The translations under genes and the position numbers were made by a program. 64,000 nucleotides of DNA from Dehalococcoidia bacterium (lineage in GTDB: Bacteria > Chloroflexota > Dehalococcoidia > Bin125). Each line of letters begins with the position of its first letter. Position 1 is the stretch's first letter. The notes beneath the pieces are model-generated. The model made no database searches, was not told the origin of the DNA, and was given only the letters and a program-made list of their open reading frames with translations. Shown here piece by piece: positions 9,936 through 24,116 of this stretch. Location: assembly GCA_963663235.2 (NCBI GenBank), contig CAXXNO010000004.1, forward strand, positions 768,001 through 832,000. Reading direction: 5' to 3'.

Positions 9936-10895
9936 ATGCAGAAGCCCGGCTTCCTCTTCTCCGCCGCCCCCGGGCATCGAAAGGCGATGATCGCCGTCGC
10001 GCAGGAGCTAGACCGGCGCGGCTTCTCGACGATCTATTGCACCCACGGGGCAGGTGGCAGCATCCCGCCGGGCCAAGCGCATATCGCACGGCCGTACGAG
10101 ATCCCCGCGCCCTACGACGCGCTGGGCCAGTGCCTGGCACTGGCCCAGGCGACGGAGCGGATCACGATCGCGAGCGGCATCGCCGTGACGTATACCCGAC
10201 ACCCCACCGAGATGGTGGCGACGGCGAACCTGATCCACGAGATCAGCGGGGGGCGGTTCATCCTGGGGCTGGGGCCCGGGCACAACGCGATCCTGGAGCG
10301 ATTCGGCTACCGGCCGGAGAAGCCCCTGGGCCACATGCGACGGTACGTGGAGGCGCTGCGCGCCGCCGCGCCGGACCGGCCGCTGCCGCCGATCATGTTC
10401 TCCGCCCTGCGCAAGAGGATGGTGCGGCTGGCGGGCGAGTTGGTGGATGGGGTGATCTGGGCGAACGCGGCGCGCTCGCACATGGCGGAATCGCTCAAGG
10501 AGGTTCCAGCGGAGAAGCGGGAGGGGTTCCTGGTCGGGAACCTGGCGCCGGCCTACGTCTCCGAGGACCGGGGCGAGGCGCTGGCCGCGGTGCGGCGGGC
10601 GCTGAGCAACTACCTGACGCTGCCCAACTACCAGCGCTACTTCATCGAGGCGGGGTACGAGGAAGAGGTGGTGCGGGGGCGGGCGGCGCTGGAAGCGGAT
10701 TCGCAGCCAGCGCTGGAGGCGTCGATCTCCGAGCGGATGGCGGAGGACATCGCCGTGTTCGGGACGGCGTCGGAGGTGCGGGGGCAGGTGGAGGCCTGGG
10801 AGGCGGCGGGCGTGAACCAGATGTGCCTCTCGACGCTGTTCCACAGCAAGGACCAAGCGAAGGCGGTGATGCGGGTCGCGGCCGCGTTCGATTAG
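9936..10895 (+). CDS. LLM-class flavin/F420-dependent oxidoreductase (paralogue 1)
   Basis: ALAQATERITIASGI...RHP...ISGGRFILGLGPG...MVRLAGELVDG. Confidence 0.88.
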   Translation: MQKPGFLFSAAPGHRKAMIAVAQELDRRGFSTIYCTHGAGGSIPPGQAHIARPYEIPAPYDALGQCLALAQATERITIASGIAVTYTRHPTEMVATANLIHEISGGRFILGLGPGHNAILERFGYRPEKPLGHMRRYVEALRAAAPDRPLPPIMFSALRKRMVRLAGELVDGVIWANAARSHMAESLKEVPAEKREGFLVGNLAPAYVSEDRGEALAAVRRALSNYLTLPNYQRYFIEAGYEEEVVRGRAALEADSQPALEASISERMAEDIAVFGTASEVRGQVEAWEAAGVNQMCLSTLFHSKDQAKAVMRVAAAFD

Positions 10896-10928
10896 GGGCG
10901 ACTCGGGCCGATTAGGGGCGACTCGGGC
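10889..10928. repeat. Perfect 20-bp tandem duplication across the stop codon
   Basis: CGATTAGGGGCGACTCGGGC x2. Confidence 0.85.
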
Positions 10929-11028
10929 GCGCCGATCCGGGCCTCGGGTTTGGCGACGGGTCGGACGTGGAGTGTTGCACGGGGATGAAGCCGCGGGTAG
11001 CCTCACTCGCACCAGTGGAGGGTGTGCC

Positions 11029-12003
11029 ATGACGAAACCGGGATTCCTGTTCTACGCCGTCCCCGGCCAGCGCAAAGCGATGATCGAAGCGGCGCAGGAG
11101 CTGGACCGGCGCGGCTTCCCTTACATCTACTGCAATCACGGGTCGGCACGGGTCATCCAAGAGCCCAGCGCCGAGGAGAAGGCGAAGGGTGTTGCACAGA
11201 CGTACCTGGGCACGGCTTGGACCGACGGGCTGAGCCACAGTCTGGCGATCGGGATGGCGACGAAGCAGATCACGATCGGGACAGGGATCGAGGTCACGTA
11301 CACGCGCCATCCGCACGAGATGATCGGCATCGGCAACTACATCAACGAGGTCTGCGACGGGCGCTTCATCCTGGGCATCGGGCCGGGGCACAACGAGATC
11401 CTGCGGCAGTTCGACTTTCCGATCGAAAAGCCGCTGGGGCACATGCGGCGGTACACGGAAGAGATGCGGACGGCGGCCGCGGGGCAACCGACGCCGCCGA
11501 TCATCTTCTCCGTGCTGCGGCAGAAGATGGTGGGGCTGGCGGGCGAGATTGCCGACGGCGTGATCTGGGCGAACGCCGTGCTCTCGCACCTGCCGACGTC
11601 GCTGAAACAGGTGCCGGCCGAGAAGCGGGATCGATTCATCGTGGCGAACCTGGCGCCGGCCTACGTGTCGGAGGATCGGGGGGAGGCGCTGGCGGCGGTG
11701 CGTATTGCGCTGACGAACTACCTGTCGCTGACCAACTACCAGCGCTACTTTATCGAAGCGGGCTACGAGGAAGAGGTCGAGCGGGCGCGGGCGGCGATGG
11801 CGGCGGACGACCAAGCGGCGCTGGCGGCGGCGGTGTCGGAGCGGATGGCGGAGGACATCGCCGTGTTCGGGACGCCGGCGCAGGTGCGCGAGAAGATCGA
11901 GGCGTTCCAGGCCGCGGGCGTGAACCAGATGTGCCTCTCGACGCTCTTTCACAGCGAAAACCAAGCCAAGGCGATCCTGCGAGTGGCGGACGCGTTCGAC
12001 TAG
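11029..12003 (+). CDS. LLM-class oxidoreductase (paralogue 2)
   Basis: Highly similar to paralogue 1; start MTKPGF after GGAGGG. Confidence 0.88.
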   Translation: MTKPGFLFYAVPGQRKAMIEAAQELDRRGFPYIYCNHGSARVIQEPSAEEKAKGVAQTYLGTAWTDGLSHSLAIGMATKQITIGTGIEVTYTRHPHEMIGIGNYINEVCDGRFILGIGPGHNEILRQFDFPIEKPLGHMRRYTEEMRTAAAGQPTPPIIFSVLRQKMVGLAGEIADGVIWANAVLSHLPTSLKQVPAEKRDRFIVANLAPAYVSEDRGEALAAVRIALTNYLSLTNYQRYFIEAGYEEEVERARAAMAADDQAALAAAVSERMAEDIAVFGTPAQVREKIEAFQAAGVNQMCLSTLFHSENQAKAILRVADAFD

Positions 12004-12016
12004 ATGTTCGCTTAGG

Positions 12017-12943
12017 ATGGGCAAGCCGGGATTCATCCTCAGCCCAGCGCCGGGCCAGCGCAAGGCGATGATCGACGTGGCGCAGGAGCTGGACCGGCGG
12101 GGCTTTCCGCACGTGCTCTGCCCGCACGAGTACGCCGGCGCGGCGACCGCGGTGGCGCCGTACGACAGCCTCAGCATGTGCACGGCCGTGATCCAGGCGA
12201 CCAAGCGGATGAAGGTGGCAAGCGGCGTGGCCGTGACATACTCGCGGCCCCCGCACGACATGGCGGCGGCGGCGGCCTTCAATCACGAGATCAGCGACGG
12301 CCGGTTCTCCCTGGGCCTGGGCGTCGGCTACGACGGCATCCTGCGGCGGTTCGGCATCGAGAGCGAGCCGCCGCTGCCGCACATGCGGCGGTATGTGGCC
12401 GCGATGCAGGCGTCCGCCCCCGACGAAGTCCTGCCGCCGGTCATCCTGGCCGCGCTCCGTCCCGGGATGATGCGCCTGGCGGGGGAGATCGCCGACGGGA
12501 TGGTGGGCGGCTGCTGGGCCCTTTCGTACGTGCGGGAGGCCCTTGCCGCGATCCCGGAGGCGAAGCGGGAGCGGTTCATCGTGGCGAACATTGTGCAGGT
12601 CTATCCGTGCGAGGATCGCAGCGAAGGGCTGGCGTTCATGCGGCGGCTGCTGGGCGCGTTCATGAAGATGCCCAGCTATCCCCAGTACTTCATCGCGGCG
12701 GGGTTCGCGGACGAGGTGGAGCGAGCAGGCGCCGCCCTGGAGATAGATGACCGCGAGGCGCTGTGGGCGTCGATCAGCGATCGGATGGCGGAGGAGATGG
12801 GGATCTTCGGGAACGCGTCGACGATGCGGGGGAAGGTGGAGGAGTGGCAAGCGGCGGGCGTGAACTGGCTCACGCTTTCGACGATCTTCGCGGACAAGGA
12901 CCGCGCCGGGACGATCCTGCGCGTCGCCGACGTCTTCGACTAG
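12017..12943 (+). CDS. LLM-class oxidoreductase (paralogue 3)
   Basis: MGKPGF...QELDRRGF...ISDGRFSLGLGVG...MRLAGEIADG. Confidence 0.88.
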   Translation: MGKPGFILSPAPGQRKAMIDVAQELDRRGFPHVLCPHEYAGAATAVAPYDSLSMCTAVIQATKRMKVASGVAVTYSRPPHDMAAAAAFNHEISDGRFSLGLGVGYDGILRRFGIESEPPLPHMRRYVAAMQASAPDEVLPPVILAALRPGMMRLAGEIADGMVGGCWALSYVREALAAIPEAKRERFIVANIVQVYPCEDRSEGLAFMRRLLGAFMKMPSYPQYFIAAGFADEVERAGAALEIDDREALWASISDRMAEEMGIFGNASTMRGKVEEWQAAGVNWLTLSTIFADKDRAGTILRVADVFD

Positions 12944-13995: not shown

Positions 13996-14327
13996 GAAGC
14001 AACCCCCCCGGCACGGCCAGCATAGGGAGCCGGGACCAGAGCGCCCATTGCGGGCGGGAGGCCGCGGCGATGGTGTGGTTACGCGGGGTTATGGTTGGCG
14101 GCGGGGCGCGAAAGCGGCTGAAAGAATCTCCGCGGTGGAAAAGATGGCCAGCGTCGCACCGCGAGGTGGTCGCGCCAGCGTCCTGAGTGGTCCCGTCCGC
14201 AGGCGGCGAGGGCGATGGCGCCCCGTGGCCAGCGGCGTATATCTCAGTGGGGAAAGCGACTAGGGTATGGGCCTATACAGAATTGTCCCGACCAGAGCGA
14301 GCCGAAGCGAGCGATAGGAGAAGACGT

Positions 14328-16115
14328 ATGAGCGACCTGAAAAATAAAGTGATGCGACGACGGGTCAGCCGGCGCAGCATTCTGGCGGCGTCGGGCGCGG
14401 CCGGGCTGGGGGCAGCGGGGCTGGCCTTGGTGGGCTGCGGCGACGACGACGACGAAGCGATATCGCAAGCCATTGCGCAGGTGATTGAAGAAGAGGCGGA
14501 GCCCGTCGAGCAGGTGGTGGCAGAGGAAGGCTTCGCGCCGGCGACTGCGGACCGGGTGCCGCCGCGGTCCAGCAAGGACACGGCGCTCCTGGCCATCGCG
14601 GCCACGCCGCTGGCGGTCGACCCCGACTTCGCCCACGGCAGCCCGCAGACGTGGGAAGCCTTTATTAACTTGCAAGACCAGTCGATCAAGTTCGGCTGGG
14701 CGGAGTACCCCTACGACGTGGGGGCGACGGAGCATGTCGGCTACCTGTCGTTCAAAGACGAGGACATCCTGCCGTGGATGCACGAGTCGGTGCCGGAGTT
14801 GAGCGAGGACGGCACGCAAGCGACCCACCGGATCAAGCCGGGCGTGCTGAGCTCCACGGGGAACGAGCTGACGTCGGCGGACTTCGCTTACCGGATCGAC
14901 CGGGCGTTCGGGCTGGGGGCGATCGGCGCGTTCTTCATGAGCATCATATCGGCGGACCCGACCAACCCGGTCGAGATCATCGACAAGTACACCTTCAAGG
15001 TGAACGCCACAGCGCCGAACGGGCTGCTGGCGACGATCTGGGCGAACAGCTTTTGGAACGCCCTGGACTCGGTCGAGGCGCTGGCGAACGCTACGGCGGA
15101 CGACGAGTGGTCCACGGAGTGGTTCGCGCAGAGCGGCGTCGGCTTCGGGAGCATCGCCGTCGAGAGCTTCGGCACGGGCGAGCAGGTGGTGTTCGCGTCA
15201 AACCCGAACTACTTCCGGGGCGAGCAGCCGATTAAGCGGTTGATCTACGACGAGATCCCGTCGGCGTCCAACCGGCTGGCCGCGGTGGCGGCCGGTGAGG
15301 CGGACGCCGCGTACGGGCTCCCGGGCGAGCTGTTCGCCCAGGCGCAGGAAGAGGGGATCCAGAACCCGATCGCGATCAAGGGGAACCTCATCTGGTTCGC
15401 CTTCATGAACTCGCTGCGCGACCCGTACCGCGACCCGCGGACGCGCCAGGCGATGAACTGGGCGACGCCGCGGCAAGATATCCTGGACACGACGTTCGGC
15501 GGGCTGGGTAACCCCTGGACCTCGGTGATGACGTCGATCTGGGAGGGGATCTGCTTGGACTGCGCGCCGTGGGGCGCCGACCCGAACTTCGCCGAGGCCA
15601 ACAAGTTGCTGGACGCGGCGGGGCAGGCGGACGGCTTCGAGGTCACCATTGACACGAACAGCTCGCGGGCGCAGGACGAGCGGATGGCCGTCCTCATGCA
15701 GGACGCGTACAAGAACATCAACGTGAACATGTCCATCAACCCGCAGCCGGAAGGGCCGTTCATCGCCGAGGGCACGGGCAAGCAGAAGACCATGGCGTTC
15801 TGGCAGGACGCCTATATCCAGCCTGACCCGATCTACTTCCTGGCGCTGGGCTACGACGCGGGCTTGAGCGGCATCAACAACTACGGGCAGCTGGACGACC
15901 CGGAGTTGAACGGCCTGCTGGACCGCGGGCGGACGTTGCTGACGGGCGCGGAGCGCGCGGAGATCGCGATCCCGATCCAGGAGCGCGTCGTCGAGCTCTC
16001 GCCGTACATCTGGCTGGTGGAGCCCTTCTACGTCAACGTCATCAACGAGAACTTGCGCGGATGGCGCTGGCACACGACCCAGGAGACGAACTGGTCCGAC
16101 ATGTACTTCGTGTAG
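14328..16115 (+). CDS. ABC family-5 (Opp/Dpp-type) solute-binding lipoprotein with Tat signal (copy 1)
   Basis: RRVSRRSILAA...LALVGC (twin-Arg plus lipobox); IKPGVLSSTGNELTSADF, PYRDPRTRQAMNWA. AGGAG RBS. Confidence 0.9.
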   Translation: MSDLKNKVMRRRVSRRSILAASGAAGLGAAGLALVGCGDDDDEAISQAIAQVIEEEAEPVEQVVAEEGFAPATADRVPPRSSKDTALLAIAATPLAVDPDFAHGSPQTWEAFINLQDQSIKFGWAEYPYDVGATEHVGYLSFKDEDILPWMHESVPELSEDGTQATHRIKPGVLSSTGNELTSADFAYRIDRAFGLGAIGAFFMSIISADPTNPVEIIDKYTFKVNATAPNGLLATIWANSFWNALDSVEALANATADDEWSTEWFAQSGVGFGSIAVESFGTGEQVVFASNPNYFRGEQPIKRLIYDEIPSASNRLAAVAAGEADAAYGLPGELFAQAQEEGIQNPIAIKGNLIWFAFMNSLRDPYRDPRTRQAMNWATPRQDILDTTFGGLGNPWTSVMTSIWEGICLDCAPWGADPNFAEANKLLDAAGQADGFEVTIDTNSSRAQDERMAVLMQDAYKNINVNMSINPQPEGPFIAEGTGKQKTMAFWQDAYIQPDPIYFLALGYDAGLSGINNYGQLDDPELNGLLDRGRTLLTGAERAEIAIPIQERVVELSPYIWLVEPFYVNVINENLRGWRWHTTQETNWSDMYFV

Positions 16116-16502: not shown

Positions 16503-16704
16503 CCGCAGCGCGGGAAAAAGAGGGGCCGGCATGGCACCGGGAGGTGCGTGCGGGTGTCCTGAGTAGTCCCGCCCCGAGCCGTCGAGGGCGATAGAGCTCC
16601 GCAGCTGTGGGCGTTCACCTCTCCGGGGGAGTCCACCAGGGGTGCAAGCCTATGCAGAATTGTCCCGACCAGAGCGAGCCGAAGCGAGCGATAGGAGAAG
16701 ACGT

Positions 16705-18492
16705 ATGAGCGACCTGAAAAATAAAGTGATGCGACGACGGGTCAGCCGGCGCAGCATTCTGGCGGCGTCGGGCGCGGCCGGGCTGGGGGCAGCGGGGCTG
16801 GCCTTGGTGGGCTGCGGCGACGACGACGACGAAGCGATATCGCAAGCCATTGCGCAGGTGATTGAAGAAGAGGCGGAGCCCGTCGAGCAGGTGGCGGCAG
16901 AGGAAGGCTTCGCGCCGGCGACCGTGGACCAGGTGCCGCCGCGGTCCGCCAAGGACCAGGCGATCCTGGCGATCGCGGCCACGCCGCTGGCGGCGGACCC
17001 GGACTTCGGCCATGGCAGCCCGCAGACGTGGGAGTCGTGGATGAACGTCCACGACCAACCGCTGAAGTTCGGCTGGGCGGAGTACCCCTTTGACGTGGGG
17101 GCGGTGGAGAATGTCGGCTACGTCTCGTTCAAGGACGAGGACATCCTGCCGTGGATGCACGAGTCCTTCCCGGAGTTGAGTGAAGACGGCACGAGCGCCA
17201 CGCACCGGATCAAGCCGGGCGTGCTGAGCTCCACGGGGAACGAGCTGACGGCCGATGACTTCGCTTGGCGGATCGACCGGGCGTTCCAGCTGGCGGGGAT
17301 CGGCGCGTTCTTCATGAACCTGCTGACGGTGGACCCGGCCAACCCGTACGAGATCATCGACAAGTACACCTTCAAGGTGAACGCCACAGCGCCGAACGGA
17401 CTGCTGGCACCGATCTGGGCGAACAGCGCCTGGCAGCCGCTGGACTCCGTGGAGGCCAAGAAGAACACCACCGCGGACGACGAGTGGGCCGTCGACTGGA
17501 TGGCGCAGAGCGCGGTGGGGTTCGGCGGCACCAAGATCAACAGCTTCGGCACGGGTGAGCGGGTGATCTACGGCGCGAACCCCAACTACTTCCGGGGTGA
17601 GCCGCCGATCAAGGAGATCATCTACGACGAGATCCCGTCGGCGTCCAACCGGCTGGCCGCGGTGGCGGCCGGTGAGGCGGACGCCGCGTACGGGCTCCCG
17701 GGCGAGCTGTTCGCCCAGGCGCAGAAAGAGGAGATCCAGAACCCGATCGCGATCAAGGGGAACTTCATCTGGTTCGCCTTCATGAACTCGCTGCGCGACC
17801 CGTTCCGCGACCCGCGGACACGCCAGGCGATGAACTGGGCGACGCCGCGGCAAGATATCCTGGATACGACGTTCGGCGGGCTGGGCAACGCCTGGACCAC
17901 GGTGATGACGTCGATCTGGGAGGGCATCTGCTTCGACTGCGCGCCGTGGGGCGTCGAGCCGGACTTCGCCGAGGCCAAGAAGTTGCTGGATGCGGCGGGG
18001 CAGGCGGACGGCTTCGAGGTCACCATTGACACGAACAGCTCGCGGGCGCAGGACGAGCGGATGGCCGTCCTCATGCAGGACGCGTACAAGAACATCAACG
18101 TGAACATGTCCATCAGCCCGCAGCCGGAAGGGCCGTTCATCGCCGAGGGCACGGGCAAGCAGAAGGTCATGGCGTTCTGGCAGGATGCCTACATCCAGCC
18201 CGACCCGATCTACTTCCTGGCGCTGGGCTACGACGCGGGCTTGAGCGGCATCAACAACTACGGGCAGTTGGACGACCCGCTGTTGAACGACTTGATCGCA
18301 CAAGCGTCGGCGAAGCTGACGAGTCCAGAGCGCGCGGAGATTGCGGTCCCGATCCAGGAGCGCGTCGTCGAGCTCTCGCCGTACATCTGGCTGGTGGAGC
18401 CGTTCTACGTCAACGTCATCAACGAGAACTTGCGCGGATGGCGCTGGCACACGACCCAGGAGACCTACTGGTCCGACATGTACTTCGTGTAG
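16705..18492 (+). CDS. ABC family-5 solute-binding lipoprotein with Tat signal (copy 2)
   Basis: Tandem paralogue of 14328-16115, same length, offset 2377 nt. Confidence 0.9.
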   Translation: MSDLKNKVMRRRVSRRSILAASGAAGLGAAGLALVGCGDDDDEAISQAIAQVIEEEAEPVEQVAAEEGFAPATVDQVPPRSAKDQAILAIAATPLAADPDFGHGSPQTWESWMNVHDQPLKFGWAEYPFDVGAVENVGYVSFKDEDILPWMHESFPELSEDGTSATHRIKPGVLSSTGNELTADDFAWRIDRAFQLAGIGAFFMNLLTVDPANPYEIIDKYTFKVNATAPNGLLAPIWANSAWQPLDSVEAKKNTTADDEWAVDWMAQSAVGFGGTKINSFGTGERVIYGANPNYFRGEPPIKEIIYDEIPSASNRLAAVAAGEADAAYGLPGELFAQAQKEEIQNPIAIKGNFIWFAFMNSLRDPFRDPRTRQAMNWATPRQDILDTTFGGLGNAWTTVMTSIWEGICFDCAPWGVEPDFAEAKKLLDAAGQADGFEVTIDTNSSRAQDERMAVLMQDAYKNINVNMSISPQPEGPFIAEGTGKQKVMAFWQDAYIQPDPIYFLALGYDAGLSGINNYGQLDDPLLNDLIAQASAKLTSPERAEIAVPIQERVVELSPYIWLVEPFYVNVINENLRGWRWHTTQETYWSDMYFV

Positions 18493-18522: not shown

Positions 18523-18550
18523 GAGGGGGCCGCCTGCGGGCGGCCCCCTC
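18523..18550. terminator. GC hairpin after SBP copy 2
   Basis: GAGGGGGCCGCC-TGCG-GGCGGCCCCCTC; stem conserved with copy 1, loop varied. Confidence 0.6.
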
Positions 18551-18688
18551 GCCTATTTCTGAGGAGGTCCGGCCACACCGCGACGAGCGGCTGCCTTGAG
18601 CGGCAGCGAGCGGCGCGAGCCACCGTACTTCCGCTGCCCTTGGTGGCACAATAGGAAGCCATACGGCCCAGCGAGAGGAAGGTCTGCG

Positions 18689-19249
18689 ATGACTCTCAGT
18701 CGTATCGCACGGGAGCAAGTTCCTGCGCCCTACCGGGCGATGATCGACGAGTCCCTGGAGCTCACAGGAGACGCCCGATTCCTGGAAGTGGCGGCCAACG
18801 CGCCGCACATCACGCACTTCTACTTCGACCAGTTCTACGGGGAGGTCTTCTACGGCGGCAAAGTCGCCGTGCGGATCAAAGAGCTGGTGCGCTTGCGGCT
18901 CTCGCGGCTGCACGGCTGCGCGCTTTGAAACACAGTGAACACCGTCTCGGCGAGACGGTACGGCATCAGCGACGACGAGATCGCCGCGCTGGACGATTAC
19001 GAGCAGGGTCCCTTCGACGAGCGTGAGAAAGCGGCCATCCGGCTGGCCACGATCATGTCCTGGCGAGAGCCCACCGGCACCGTGGACGACGATCTCCTGG
19101 CGCAGCTGCAGGAGTATTTCAGTGACGGGGAGATCCTGGAGCTGGCGATGGTGTGCTCCGTCCTCACGGGCATGGCCAAGCTGCTCTTCGCCTTTGATCT
19201 TGCGGACAAGGAAGCGACCTGCCCGTACAACCCGCCGGACGGGTCCTGA
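18689..19249 (+). CDS. AhpD/carboxymuconolactone-decarboxylase-like selenoprotein (CxxU; Sec at UGA 18926-18928)
   Basis: Two track ORFs are in one frame: IKELVRLRLSRLHGCAL-UGA-NTVNTVSARRYGISDDEIAAL...FDEREKAAIRLA...YFSDGEILEL. Hairpin 12 nt after the UGA. Confidence 0.8.
18941..18959 (+). promoter_or_regulatory. Putative bacterial SECIS hairpin
   Basis: ACCGTCTC-GGC-GAGACGGT: perfect stem with a G-led small loop just 3' of the in-frame UGA. Confidence 0.65.
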
Positions 19250-19282: not shown

Positions 19283-20203
19283 ATGGAGTTTGGCGTCCAC
19301 CTGCCTCAGATCGGCCGGACGGGCAGCGGCGAGAACATCCGGCGGCTGGCAGAGCGCGCCGAAGCGCTCGGCTACGAATCGTGTTGGGTCAGCGACCACG
19401 TCACCATCCCAGAGCGGATCGCGTCGCGGTACCCGTACGGGAACGGGCGGCTGCCGGTGGGACCGGAGATCGCCTGGCTCGACCCGCTGGGCACGCTCTG
19501 CTTCGCCGCCGCCTGCACCGAGCGGGTGGCGCTCGGGATCTCGGTGCTGGTGCTGGGGCTGCGGCCGCCGGTGCAGACGGCCAAGCTGATCGCCACGCTG
19601 GACGTGCTGTCAGGGGGGCGTCTGATCCTGGGCATCGGCGTGGGGTGGATGGAAGAGGAGTTCGAGGCCGTGGGGATGCCCTGGGATCATCGCGGGGCGC
19701 GAGCCGACGAACAGCTCGAGGTCTTCGACGCGCTCTTCACTCAGGATCGCCCCGAGCATCACGGCCGTTTCTACGAATTCGAGCGGATCGGCTTCAACCC
19801 CAAGCCGATCCGCGGCCGTGTCCCGATCTGGGTGGGCGGCAGCAGCCCCGCCGCCTACCGGCGCGCGGCGCGCTACGGAGACAACTTCCATAGCGTGGCT
19901 TCGACGACGCCGCCGTCGGAGGTGCAGCAGCAGTGGGAGGCGGCGCGCCGCTTCGCCGAGGAGCAGGGGCGGGACCCCGACTCGGTGGCGCTCAGCCTGC
20001 GGGCCTGGCTGCGCTACGGCGCCGAGGACATCGGCGACGGTTCCTTCAGCGGCAGCGACGACCAGATCGTCGAGAGCATCGAGCGCTGGGCCGCGATCGG
20101 CGTATCGCACATCGCGATGGACATCGTGAGCCCGGGCGGGATCGAGCAGCAGGTGGAGTCGATTGAGCGCTTCGCCGCGAACGTGCGGCCGCAGTTGGGC
20201 TGA
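19283..20203 (+). CDS. LLM-class, probably F420-dependent, oxidoreductase (Rv2161c-like)
   Basis: AEALGYESCWVSDH...WLDPLGTL...AKLIATLDVLSGGRLILGIGVGWMEEEF. Confidence 0.9.
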   Translation: MEFGVHLPQIGRTGSGENIRRLAERAEALGYESCWVSDHVTIPERIASRYPYGNGRLPVGPEIAWLDPLGTLCFAAACTERVALGISVLVLGLRPPVQTAKLIATLDVLSGGRLILGIGVGWMEEEFEAVGMPWDHRGARADEQLEVFDALFTQDRPEHHGRFYEFERIGFNPKPIRGRVPIWVGGSSPAAYRRAARYGDNFHSVASTTPPSEVQQQWEAARRFAEEQGRDPDSVALSLRAWLRYGAEDIGDGSFSGSDDQIVESIERWAAIGVSHIAMDIVSPGGIEQQVESIERFAANVRPQLG

Positions 20204-20213
20204 GGCCGGCAGG

Positions 20214-21050
20214 ATGGCGGGCAAGCATCCCAGCGGCAAGCGGGTCATTGTCACCGGCGCGACCGCAGGGATCGGCAGAGCGACGGCGCGGCTGTTCGCG
20301 CAGGAGGGCGCGCGCGTCGCCGCCGTGGCGCGACGCCAGGAGCGGCTGGAGGCGCTGGCCGGGGAAAGCGACGGGATGGCGGGGTCGATCATCCCCATCG
20401 TCGCGGACCTGTCCAACGAAGCGGACGCCCGGCGGATGGTGGACGAAGCCGCCGCCGCCCTGGGCGGGGTGGACATTCTGATCAACAACGCCGCGGCGGC
20501 GATGATGGGAGAGTTGATCGACGCGGATCTGCAACGTTGGCGCTACATGCTGGACGTCAACTATTTCGGTCCGGCGGCGGCGATCCAGGCGGCCATCCCG
20601 CACCTGCGGCAAGCGGGGGGCGGGCAGATCATCAACATCTCATCGACGGTGGCCAAGCGGTCGATGCCGGGCAGCGCCCCGTACTGCTCCTCCAAGATGG
20701 CGTTGGACGGGATCAGCGAAGGGCTGCGCCAGGAGCTGGAGCCGGAGGGCATCCGCGTGATCGTGGTCTACCCGGGGCTGACCGCTACCGAAGTCTACGA
20801 CGCCCTCCTGGCGATGGGGCCGCTGCCCAAGCCGGGCGGTTTCTGGGGGCTGCTGTTCCGGCTGCGCAGCAAGGTCCGCCGGGGCGTGCCGCCCGGGCAC
20901 GTGGCGCGCACGATCCTCAAGGCATCGCGGCGGGGGCAGCGGGAGGCCTACGTGACGATCGGTGACAAGCTGTCCGTGCAGCTGGCGGGCCTTGCCCCGG
21001 CGGTCATGGATTGGGTAGTGGCAGGGATGTACGGCAAACGGCGGACGTAG
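20214..21050 (+). CDS. Short-chain dehydrogenase/reductase
   Basis: TGATAGIG, NNA, YCSSK catalytic motif. Confidence 0.92.
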   Translation: MAGKHPSGKRVIVTGATAGIGRATARLFAQEGARVAAVARRQERLEALAGESDGMAGSIIPIVADLSNEADARRMVDEAAAALGGVDILINNAAAAMMGELIDADLQRWRYMLDVNYFGPAAAIQAAIPHLRQAGGGQIINISSTVAKRSMPGSAPYCSSKMALDGISEGLRQELEPEGIRVIVVYPGLTATEVYDALLAMGPLPKPGGFWGLLFRLRSKVRRGVPPGHVARTILKASRRGQREAYVTIGDKLSVQLAGLAPAVMDWVVAGMYGKRRT

Positions 21051-21137: not shown

Positions 21138-22274
21138 ATGCCCTCGACGCTGACGAACGAGCTGTGCGAGATGCTGGGCATCGAGTACCCGATCATCCTG
21201 GCGGGCATGGGGGGCGCCGCCGGTCCGCAGCTGGCCGCGGCCGTTTCCGAGGCCGGCGGGCTGGGCGTGGTGGGAGCGAGCGGCTACAGCCCGGACGAGC
21301 TCTCGGGCATGATCGCCACGGTGCGATCGCTGACGGACAAGCCGTTTGGGGTCGACCTGCTCGTGCCCTCGTCGCTGGCGGAGAGCGGCAACCAGGAGGA
21401 CTTGGAAGCGCAGATCCCGGAAGAGCATCGGCAGTTCGTGGAGGAGCTGCGGCGCGAGTTCAAGCTCCCGAAGGCGAAGCAGCGACCGTACTTCATGCCC
21501 CCCACGCAGGAGTACTTCCGCAAGCAGGTGGCCGTGACGCTGGACGAGAAGGTTCCCGTCTTCGCCAGCGGGTTGGGGGACCCCGCCTGGATGGTGCCAG
21601 ACGCGCACGCGCAAGGCATGACGGTGATGGCCCTTGTGGGCAACACGAAGAACGCCAAGCGCGTAGCGGCGGGGGGCGCGGACGTAGTGGTGGCGCAAGG
21701 GACCGAGGCCGGCGGGCACACGGGGCGGATCGGCACGATGGCGCTGGTGCCGCAGGTCGTCGACGCCGTGTATCCAACCACGGTGGTTGCGGCAGGCGGC
21801 ATCGGCGATGGGCGAGGGCTGGTGGCGGCGCTGGCCCTGGGCGCGGCAGGAGTCTGGTGCGGCACGGCGTTCCTGGCCACGCCGGAGGCCTACCTGGACG
21901 CGGAGGAGCGCGGCGAGACCAACGCGTGGACGCGCCAGGTCCAGCAGCAGAAGCTGATCGCGGCCAGCGATGAGGATACGCGCGTCGGGAAGATGTACAC
22001 GGGCAAGCCGGTGCGCCACGTGCACAACGCCTGGACCGAGGCGTGGGAGCGGCCCGAGGCGCCGGCGACGCTGCCGACGCCCTTGCAAGAGCTACTGGTG
22101 AACGACGCGCTGCAAGGCGCCCGCGAAGGGCACGTGGAGGCGCTGATCGGAGGGCCGGCGGGCAACGCGGCAGGACTCATCAAGGCGGTCCACCCCGCGC
22201 GGGACGTGCTAGCAGCGATGGCGCGCGAAGCGGAGGCGCTGCTGGAGCGGCTGCCGCGATCGCCGCGGACCTAA
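21138..22274 (+). CDS. Nitronate monooxygenase / FabK-like FMN enzyme
   Basis: YPIILAGMGG, AQGTEAGGHTG, AAGGIGDGRG, GVWCGTAF. Confidence 0.9.
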   Translation: MPSTLTNELCEMLGIEYPIILAGMGGAAGPQLAAAVSEAGGLGVVGASGYSPDELSGMIATVRSLTDKPFGVDLLVPSSLAESGNQEDLEAQIPEEHRQFVEELRREFKLPKAKQRPYFMPPTQEYFRKQVAVTLDEKVPVFASGLGDPAWMVPDAHAQGMTVMALVGNTKNAKRVAAGGADVVVAQGTEAGGHTGRIGTMALVPQVVDAVYPTTVVAAGGIGDGRGLVAALALGAAGVWCGTAFLATPEAYLDAEERGETNAWTRQVQQQKLIAASDEDTRVGKMYTGKPVRHVHNAWTEAWERPEAPATLPTPLQELLVNDALQGAREGHVEALIGGPAGNAAGLIKAVHPARDVLAAMAREAEALLERLPRSPRT

Positions 22275-22334
22275 ATTCGGGCCGGACTATACTGGGCCGG
22301 CGGCGGGGCGGCCCGCATGACCGAAGGGAGCGTC

Positions 22335-24116
22335 ATGGCAACCGAGCGTGGAGCGTCGGTCGACCCGATCACTTTCGAAGTGCTGCGCGGGGCCTTCGTG
22401 GCGATGTGCAACGAGATGGCGCTGGTCGTCGCCAAGACGGCCTACTCCACGCCGGTGAACGAGGGGCGCGACTTCGCCAGCGGCCTCTACGACGGGGAGG
22501 GGAAGCTGATCTCGCAGGGAGAGTTCGACCTGCCGGCGTTCGTAGGGCTGACGCACCTCACGGTGCCGGAGGTGATCCGGGCCATTGGGCGGGACAACAT
22601 GGAGCCCGAAGACATCTACATGATCAACGACCCGTATGTCGCGTCCACGCACTGTAACGACATTCACTTCGTCAAACCGATCTTCATGGACGGGAGCCTG
22701 GTGGCGTTCGTCTCGACCACGGCGCACTGGTCGGACGTGGGGGGTATAGCGCCGGGCTCGCTGATCTGCGTGGCACGCTCCCACTTTGAGGAAGGGATGC
22801 GGATCCCAGCCGTGCGGATCTACGAGCGCGGCGAGCTGAACACCGACGTGCTCCATTTGCTGCTGGCCAACATGCGCCAGGAGTGGGAGCGGCTTGGTGA
22901 CTTCAACGCGCAGGTCGCGGCGACCAGAGCGGGGGAGTCCCGGTTCCGCGTCATCGTGAAGCGGCACGGCCTGGACGCCGTCCTGAAGACCATGGCCGAC
23001 GTGCAGGACTACTCCGAGCGGCTGACGCGAACCGCGTTCACGTCGTTGCCGGACGGCACGTATTACGGCGAGGACCGCTGTGACCAGGACATCTTCACCG
23101 GCCTGCCCAAGGTGATGCGGCTCAACCTGACGATTGACGGGGACCACGCGATCATCGATCTGACGGAGAGCGACGATCCGGCGGAGTGCAGCATCAACTG
23201 CACGATCGCGGCGACGACATCGGCGGTGTTCATCGCGCTGCTGTCGATCCTACCGCCGATCCCGGTGAACAGCGGAGTGCTGCGGGCGATTGAGATCAAA
23301 GCGCGTCCGGGCTCGCTGGCGTGGGCGCTGCCGCCGGTGGGGGTCTCCGGGCTGCCCGCCACGACGATGGATTCCGTCACCAGTTGCACGTGGCAGGCGC
23401 TGGGCCAAGCGATACCCGAGCGGGGCATCGGGTCCGCGTACAGCATCCTGAACGCCGTCTTCTCCGGCTTCGACGAGCGGCCGGAGTTCCAATCGCCGTT
23501 CATCAATTACGTGTGGGGATTCGGTGGCATGGGAGCGGCGCAGACGCACGACGGCACGAGCGCCGCGGCCGCTCCCTACGGCGGCAGCATCCAGACCATC
23601 CCCGCAGAGCTCCAGGAGCGACGCTACCCGGTGCTGTGGAGGCGCCACCAGTTCCGGCAAGGCTCGGGCGGCCCGGGCGCATCACGCGGGGGATTGGGAC
23701 TGGACGAGCTGGTGGAGTTCCCGTTCCAATCGGGGACCGTCTCCTGCATCGGAGCGCGCGAGCGGTTCGGGGCGCCGGGAATTTTCGCCGGTGAGGAGGG
23801 CGGGACGTCCGGGTTGATCCTGAACCAAGGGACGGAGTCGGAACGGAACCTGGGCGTGCTCTGCCTGCACGAGCCCGTGGCCGCGGGCGAGATCATGTCC
23901 ATGTGGGCAGGCGGCGGGGGCGGCTACGGGGATCCGTTGGACCGTCCGGTTGAGGAGGTCGTCGAGGACGTCAAGGACGAATACGTGTCGATCGAGCAGG
24001 CGCGCACGCAGTACGGCGTGCTGGTGCGCGAGATCGACCGTCGCACGCTGGACTACGCGGCCGACGAGCAGGCCACCACGACGCTGCGGCAGGAGATGCG
24101 CGCCGCGCGCTCCTAA
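22335..24116 (+). CDS. Hydantoinase B / 5-oxoprolinase family protein (paralogue 1)
   Basis: DPITFEV...NDPYVASTHCND...AHWSDVGG...EEGMRIP...GGGGGYGDP. Start 22317 or 22335. Confidence 0.9.
   Translation: MATERGASVDPITFEVLRGAFVAMCNEMALVVAKTAYSTPVNEGRDFASGLYDGEGKLISQGEFDLPAFVGLTHLTVPEVIRAIGRDNMEPEDIYMINDPYVASTHCNDIHFVKPIFMDGSLVAFVSTTAHWSDVGGIAPGSLICVARSHFEEGMRIPAVRIYERGELNTDVLHLLLANMRQEWERLGDFNAQVAATRAGESRFRVIVKRHGLDAVLKTMADVQDYSERLTRTAFTSLPDGTYYGEDRCDQDIFTGLPKVMRLNLTIDGDHAIIDLTESDDPAECSINCTIAATTSAVFIALLSILPPIPVNSGVLRAIEIKARPGSLAWALPPVGVSGLPATTMDSVTSCTWQALGQAIPERGIGSAYSILNAVFSGFDERPEFQSPFINYVWGFGGMGAAQTHDGTSAAAAPYGGSIQTIPAELQERRYPVLWRRHQFRQGSGGPGASRGGLGLDELVEFPFQSGTVSCIGARERFGAPGIFAGEEGGTSGLILNQGTESERNLGVLCLHEPVAAGEIMSMWAGGGGGYGDPLDRPVEEVVEDVKDEYVSIEQARTQYGVLVREIDRRTLDYAADEQATTTLRQEMRAARS

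Follow-up and report, generated by a model that had tools for sequence, protein, structure and literature searches.

Is the in-frame UGA of a small, AhpD-like redox gene in a Dehalococcoidia bacterium a stop codon, or is it read as selenocysteine (Sec)? The question arises from a gene on the forward strand of contig CAXXNO010000004.1, within a stretch of 64,000 nucleotides (positions 768,001 to 832,000, hereafter the window). An earlier note, made from the letters alone, had described the gene as a hidden selenoprotein with a CxxU motif and a hairpin resembling a Sec insertion sequence (SECIS). Our comparative analysis indicates, with high confidence, that UGA codon 80 is read as Sec under the direction of the hairpin behind it. 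The whole reading, in which the product is a stand-alone thiol/selenol oxidoreductase of 186 residues with Sec80 and the AhpD/carboxymuconolactone decarboxylase (CMD) fold, is probable.

The frame opens with ATG, runs through 79 codons to the internal TGA, continues for 106 codons and ends at a second TGA (19247–19249). Translation thus bore out the claim of one continuous frame broken solely at the second position of the CxxC motif. The internal TGA forms the last position of C77-A-L-x80, within H75-G-C77-A-L-U80-N. A third cysteine near the C-terminus, also claimed earlier, is indeed found in an ATCP motif (C178); C156 is not conserved (1 of 35 homologues). Purine tracts similar to the ribosome-binding-site-like sequence of the gene (Table 1) precede an ATG exactly 79 codons ahead of the TGA in orthologues. 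Contigs from five runs of five studies, one or more of which may be the window's own source, cover the TGA and the hairpin with no alternative letter listed, indicating that the in-frame TGA is not an assembly error. In comparisons with six homologues, both halves of the gene diverged mainly at third codon positions, as expected of one functional gene.

We found 38 database proteins related to the product and aligned 35 of them, leaving out three fragments or fusions. Column 80 is Cys in 34 of the 35 and Arg in the remaining one (P0008), so a Cys does align to the UGA, the check that the earlier note had proposed. We examined 77 loci, of which 74 gave a scorable column: 60 have Cys there (TGC in L128) and 14 have TGA, the latter representing 13 distinct genes with the window included. 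Reading the TGA as Trp was rejected because the column is Cys and a tRNA-Sec is present. The host genome (G000) carries a paralogue with 52% identity (L045, G000:C12:202812-203372), with TGA in the same column and the same hairpin; three relatives (G004, G012 and G017) also have two copies each. Across 41 genomes, window included, all nine matches with at least 48% identity contain exactly one TGA, as do all eight matches at E ≤ 1e-30, from six genomes, among 301 genomes of the class. Of 16 TGA-bearing genomes, 15 gave a match to selA, and the one without it is 54% complete; of 18 Cys-bearing genomes tested, 7 gave a match. The closest named matches, at 58–64% identity, are labelled Chloroflexota and Dehalococcoidia, and full-length Cys homologues are single chains of 174–213 residues.

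In a quick tree, from which rows with fewer than 150 aligned residues were left out, 13 Sec rows fall on one branch (Shimodaira–Hasegawa-like approximate likelihood ratio test 99) together with P0008 and the long-branch Cys row P0018. A single gain of Sec from Cys is likely, and no firmer than that because the root of this tree is unreliable. P0008 itself, known from protein alone, is a member of the Sec clade (it has the VSARR peptide and stands beside L076); its Arg possibly reflects a change from TGA to CGA or AGA, or a sequencing error. Genomes of the same family or class also contain distant CMD-like CxxU genes (L026, L027, L029, L032, L034, L035, L037 and L049). These share 23–30% identity, have different peptides, still place a stem-loop at +19/+20 and represent at least four further clades; three were scanned, and none reached an NCBIfam cut-off.

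The hairpin lies where the earlier note had placed it, as a perfect 8-bp stem with a G-led loop: ACCGTCTC-GGC-GAGACGGT starts 12 nt after the TGA. A 7–8-bp stem whose GGC loop falls exactly at +20 is present in every one of the 14 TGA rows, whereas only 1 of the 60 Cys rows has a stem of at least 7 bp with a G-led loop, and that one at +25. We aligned 21 TGA genes without gaps (13 closely and 8 distantly related); 92.9% of cells pair, and two-sided changes occur in all eight pairs. Stem covariation in this set was 0.74; shuffling gave 0.29 (0 of 500), and sliding the partners gave no more than 0.19. None of these figures is a probability, since the genes are relatives and one of them supplied the structure. 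Direct compensations among the TGA genes include the change from CCGTCTC/GAGACGG to CCGCTTC/GAAGCGG, and also TCTGCATC/GATGCAGA. Codons 81–92 are identical to each homologue at 7–9 of 12 positions, versus 21–27 of 79 and 24–35 of 86 elsewhere, and the stem holds AGA, which makes up 1.0% of the Arg codons of the genome, in 11 of the 14 TGA rows. A published model of the bacterial SECIS gives a loop of 3–9 nt, a stem of 4–16 bp, a G in the first two loop positions, a distance of 16–37 nt from the UGA and a minimum free energy of −7.5 kcal/mol or lower (PMC13188914). The present element agrees with this model in its 3-nt GGC loop, its 8 bp, its position at +20 and its energy of −12.7 kcal/mol (45 nt). 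Judged from these comparisons, the hairpin behind the UGA behaves as the SECIS of the gene.

The earlier note had also supposed that the host uses Sec, to be checked by a search for selA, selB, selD and tRNA-Sec, and all four are present in its genome (91.9% complete, 68–69% GC). Matches above curated cut-offs were obtained for selA (E 8e-134), selB (2e-107) and selD (4e-107), and selD itself has one in-frame TGA at its Cys/Sec site. The tRNA-Sec scored 70.9 bits, has a UCA anticodon and lies at C4:239791-239890, far from selA (C2), selB (C12) and selD (C4:103776). The aragorn program made 46 tRNA calls on this genome, including an unassigned 100-nt call at C5:159277-159376. A crude scan for in-frame TGA gave 137 candidates; 12 were chosen by eye and 9 of those were scanned against NCBIfam. 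All nine match families with known or plausible selenoprotein members, two of them above cut-off (a SelL-related redox protein and SelT/W/H), indicating that the host is a heavy Sec user. BSepDB lists Dehalococcoidia with 46–49 selenoproteins among its richest genomes (PMC13326102).

Further in-frame TGA candidates of the host (L139–L145 and L147) lie at C12:208722, C6:216247, C9:76486, C5:45281, C4:341954, C1:26680, C4:663121 and C5:50199. Their kinds include CC/Se-motif, rhodanese, SelL-related, peroxiredoxin-like, glutaredoxin-like, FtrB-like, OsmC-like and SelW-like proteins; the gene at C5:45281 shows an apparent frame change after the TGA and two AhpC/TSA pieces. About 20 kb ahead of the window, an arsenite-methyltransferase-like gene on the reverse strand (L138, G000:C4:747832) contains a TGA in frame (WSG-U-IAG), accompanied by a G-loop stem of 9 bp, with NCBIfam ArsM-type matches below cut-off.

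The product is predicted to adopt the AhpD/CMD fold. The family assignment made from the letters agrees with the match to PF02627 (41.7 bits against a gathering score of 23), the alignment to PA0269 and the predicted fold. Several named groups share this fold and the CxxU position: AhpD-like (COG2128/TIGR01926), the ‘distant AhpD homolog’ NF041047, the ‘AhpD-related’ NF041238 and the ‘YciW-related (seleno)protein’ NF053654. The gene falls far under the cut-offs of NF053654, its best NCBIfam match (E 9e-15, 54.9 of 310 bits), and of TIGR01926 (E 2e-5, 24.8 versus 81.8 bits), and matched neither NF041047 nor NF041238 at E ≤ 0.01. The paralogue and two other Sec members likewise had no above-cut-off match to these NCBIfam families (E ≤ 1e-4).

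The AhpD peroxidase-type site is described as a helix-hairpin with Glu-x11-Cys-x-x-Cys, a relay His four residues past the second Cys (His137/His55) and a His or Tyr within the motif (PMC3141380). E65, C77 and U80 reproduce the first pattern, on predicted helices 61–75 and 78–90. By contrast, N84 occupies the relay position, and the in-motif residue is L79 here and F, L, T or S in homologues. Conservation follows this arrangement: E65 is present in 33 of the 35 homologues, H75 in 32, C77 in all and C178 in 31, the four exceptions being three distant outgroup proteins and one truncated protein. A tail Cys lies near the place of C178 in 72 of 73 full-tail loci, and column 84 holds Asn or Asp at all 74 scored loci, with no His among the 35 homologues. 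Compared with PA0269 (2O4D/2IJC/7XW1), Deinococcus radiodurans DR1765 (6K40) and Mycobacterium tuberculosis AhpD, the gene encodes Sec in place of the second Cys, Asn in place of relay His55/His137 and Leu in place of Tyr50/His132; it has the extra tail Cys178 and no adjacent ahpC. Streptococcus pneumoniae AhpD (6E8L), which has a three-cysteine active site, shares 16% identity.

AhpD attacks with its second Cys. In the stand-alone oxidoreductase that we favour, SelB with tRNA(Sec) would bind the G-led loop and insert Sec, and the Sec80 selenolate would act as the nucleophile towards either a hydroperoxide or a protein thiol in oxidised form. Cys77 would resolve Sec80 to a selenenylsulfide, the tail Cys178 may hand on electrons, and a lipoyl- or thioredoxin-type donor would re-reduce the protein. 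Recycling of these types has been described for AhpD (PMC8945050), and PA0269 has weak Cys-dependent peroxidase activity (PMC3141380). The host genome has nine AhpC/TSA matches over cut-off, which are possible clients.

Several observations count against this interpretation, some touching Sec decoding and others the proposed chemistry. Compared with shuffles, the hairpin energy gave z = −1.1 (60 nt), −1.5 (45 nt) and +0.4 (100 nt), and the sequence behind the codon has a similar mean folding energy whether the row carries TGA (−14.5 kcal/mol) or Cys (−13.7 kcal/mol). Such stems are also common by chance: a G-loop stem of at least 8 bp occurs at +12 to +31 behind 3.3% of the TGA triplets scored genome-wide (913 of 27,359). 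Energy was therefore rejected as a measure of significance; being uninformative, it leaves the significance of the hairpin to rest on the relatives, through position and covariation. Because the TGA rows are relatives, and one of them supplied the structure, they amount to fewer independent cases than their number suggests. RNA contigs from three runs are short pieces, none across the UGA (18578–18824 in X18, 19047–19218 in X20); they bear on expression neither way. The relay His is absent across the whole subfamily, which means that the classical AhpD peroxidase mechanism cannot be transferred unchanged, and no peroxiredoxin or electron donor is conserved beside the gene among the scanned loci. 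With respect to the attacking residue, the PDB title of the Bmp8 substrate complex names a mutant of the first Cys, and in Sestrin2 the catalytic Cys is the first one, the sole Cys kept (PMC4674687). With the relay His missing and Sestrin2 catalysing through its first Cys, the protein may work by a different chemistry.

The gene order bears on function as well. The selenoprotein gene had been proposed to head an operon with genes for a luciferase-like monooxygenase (LLM)-class oxidoreductase, a short-chain dehydrogenase (SDR) and a nitronate monooxygenase (NMO), linking selenium to catabolism. Co-transcription with LLM, SDR and NMO is plausible in the host: the gaps from the selenoprotein gene through LLM, SDR and NMO to a hydantoinase B gene, all on the same strand, are 33, 10, 87 and 42 nt, and the intervals as far as NMO contain no plus-strand terminator-like site. 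The link to catabolism did not survive comparison with relatives. In G004, G012 and G017 (63–65% identity), the next gene after the selenoprotein gene is one of the hydantoinase B/oxoprolinase family, assigned by a Pfam scan in two and by the same size and position in the third. These genomes belong to one genus and hence are not independent. Their shared order is LLM, two binding proteins, the selenoprotein gene, hydantoinase B and an opposed alpha/beta hydrolase, without the LLM-SDR-NMO series; their best LLM match lies elsewhere in the genome, and an NMO query found no match at E ≤ 1e-40 in three of four orthologue-bearing genomes. A conserved operon with LLM, SDR and NMO was rejected on these grounds. 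A second LLM gene (57–60% identity) about 6–9 kb from the paralogue in the same three genomes was discounted because it is too distant and the LLM family is too common.

Elsewhere the surroundings differ again. In G027 the gene comes after alaS-ruvX-mltG; different genes again flank the paralogues. Across 65 related loci, with GC-rich clusters filtered as likely shadow open reading frames, no neighbour family is common to more than 15; the top cluster, CoA-transferase III, occurs at 15 of the 65, several of them close kin. A ‘hydantoin’ theme was considered, as the host paralogue follows an Asp/Glu/hydantoin racemase gene, and dismissed as coincidence, as the neighbours of its orthologues in three relatives are different. 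The LLM, SDR and NMO genes are thus likely local passengers, not fixed partners, and from gene order the selenoprotein gene appears to behave as a free-standing module.

Table 1 Features of the selenoprotein gene and its surroundings, in window coordinates
Feature	Position	Strand	Basis
12-bp GC-rich hairpin past solute-binding-protein gene, terminator-like, weak T tract	18523..18550	+	hairpin scan
Ribosome-binding-site-like GAGAGGAAGG, 6 nt 5' of start ATG	18673..18682	+	sequence
Predicted AhpD/CMD-fold selenoprotein coding sequence, 186 aa, Sec at codon 80	18689..19249	+	sequence
Glu65, equivalent of AhpD proton-relay Glu (PA0269 Glu36)	18881..18883	+	alignment
CxxU motif, Cys77 (TGC) and Sec80 (TGA 18926–18928)	18917..18928	+	homologue alignment
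Asn84, at position of AhpD/PA0269 relay His (His137/His55)	18938..18940	+	alignment to PA0269
Predicted bacterial SECIS, 8-bp stem, GGC loop 20 nt past UGA	18941..18959	+	comparison, covariation, published model
Cys178, third conserved Cys, C-terminal tail	19220..19222	+	homologue alignment
LLM-class oxidoreductase, TIGR03619 above cut-off; not a conserved neighbour	19283..20203	+	profile search, relatives
SDR; absent at orthologous loci	20214..21050	+	profile search, relatives
NMO/FabK-like flavoenzyme; not found in three of four orthologue-bearing genomes	21138..22274	+	profile search, relatives
Hydantoinase B/oxoprolinase-family gene; directly follows selenoprotein gene in three nearest orthologous loci	22317..24116	+	profile search, relatives

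Other features of the region were recorded. Upstream of the gene, 14187–16115 and 16642–18492 (+) hold tandem, similar genes for family-5 solute-binding lipoproteins with near-identical N-termini; one of the two is inverted in three relatives. The hairpin past them belongs to a weak excess of terminator-like sites (4 found versus 2.0 expected), and a second copy of its stretch is visible in contigs. Three tandem LLM-class paralogues occupy 9936–12943 (+), and relatives carry a greatly expanded LLM family, with 64–84 first-look candidates per genome. The best NCBIfam match of the hydantoinase B gene is caprolactamase beta (272 of 1000 bits); no A subunit was found among its adjoining identified open reading frames, and no dedicated A-subunit search was made. 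At G026:C191, a tandem CMD-like pair (L049/L025) has CxxU in one member and Asp at the second Cys position in the other (HGCAYD). At nine Pseudomonadota loci (L099, L107, L109, L113, L114, L118, L122, L124 and L126), a second CMD-family gene stands 21 nt from the Cys form, in the same orientation, and the two may make up a heteromeric pair. The record titles of L111 (Nitrosopumilus sp.) and L115 (Klebsiella pneumoniae) misfit their placement in the tree among sequences of Pseudomonadota metagenome-assembled genomes, possibly through mis-binning or mislabelling; L115 groups tightly with Steroidobacteraceae.

A real selenoprotein could also serve as a substrate-specific catabolic reductase, such as a Bmp8-like reductive dehalogenase or a protector of the downstream flavoenzymes, acting with LLM, SDR, NMO or hydantoinase B; we consider this unlikely. 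The structure match to Bmp8, the tetrabromopyrrole debrominase (6OHI/6OHJ, 15% identity), ties in Z score with about ten other AhpD-like structures, and no bmp-like cluster was seen among the gene neighbours scanned. His88 and Asn170 of Bmp8, which we take to be functionally important, align to G/V83 and A163 in the subfamily and are not kept here, register errors being possible at this identity. The neighbours vary among lineages and between the two copies of the host, and the hydantoinase-linked genomes amount to a single genus.

A bolder proposal, to which we give a similarly low probability, would place the gene, as the selenium branch, in an AhpD-fold subfamily without a name of its own, in which the relay His was dropped and a conserved third Cys gained. 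The target of a Sec80-Cys77-Cys178 relay would then be one particular organic compound, for instance a halogenated aromatic as with Bmp8 or thyroid deiodinase, and not peroxides, and the peptide would have been reshaped from xDAxx to VSARR to fit the SECIS.

Slightly less credible still is a site for a metal or metalloid, built from H75, C77, U80 and C178 and used in sensing, buffering or detoxification, in place of a redox pair. The conservation of these residues (with Cys at column 80 in homologues) and the absent relay His speak for such a site; the relay Glu65 is nevertheless retained, and Sec usually stands in place of a redox-active Cys. A nonsense mutation (pseudogene) or assembly error is effectively refuted: the hairpin energy is not significant, but the paralogue shares the TGA, as do orthologues with identities as low as 48%, both halves are open and diverge mainly at third positions, the SECIS covaries and the five studies agree on the letters. 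Equally improbable are two separate peptides of 79 and 104 residues with a restart at GTG 18935, as public protein collections store them in separate entries; the GTG is kept in just 2 of the 14 TGA rows and has no ribosome-binding-site-like motif upstream, as the earlier note had remarked of the second half, the second active-site residue would be lost, and full-length Cys homologues are single chains, although some truncated product is still expected under selenium shortage.

Selenoproteins of this kind have been catalogued in marine surveys. Among the CxxU selenoproteins of the Sargasso Sea were 27 AhpD-like and 4 CMD domain-containing sequences (PMC1088965), the Global Ocean Sampling survey counted 299 sequences of AhpD-like 1 and 70 of AhpD-like 2 (PMC2398784), and a 2026 review tabulates several such families (PMC13188914). 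With the CMD-like, or ‘AhpD-like 2’, selenoproteins the gene shares PF02627 above cut-off, CxxU, one Sec, a canonical SECIS and widespread Cys homologues; the kinship is drawn from the domain and motif definition of that family (PMC1088965, PMC2398784, PMC13188914). The family descriptions in these three sources make no mention of a lost relay His with a conserved C178, and these surveys and reviews, together with PMC13326102, give no tested activity for an AhpD/CMD-type selenoprotein in their accounts of the families. The clade may already be present in the supplements of selenoproteome papers or in BSepDB. Among the literature matches listed for Dehalococcoidia, SAR202 and sponge, none mentions a selenoprotein.

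The gene is almost certainly a real, well-supported member of a long-catalogued bacterial selenoprotein kind, and the finding shows neither a new kind of system nor a selenium link to the neighbouring catabolic genes. Its His-less, three-cysteine subfamily poses a modest question. The soluble 21-kDa protein and its Cys twins make a convenient assay pair. The annotation is corrected, in that the 79- and 104-residue entries are one gene, and the same holds for the paralogue and relatives. The subfamily also provides a natural comparison of Sec and Cys forms in which the coding cost of an in-frame SECIS is visible, as a rare AGA codon and an altered peptide fixed across the Sec clade.
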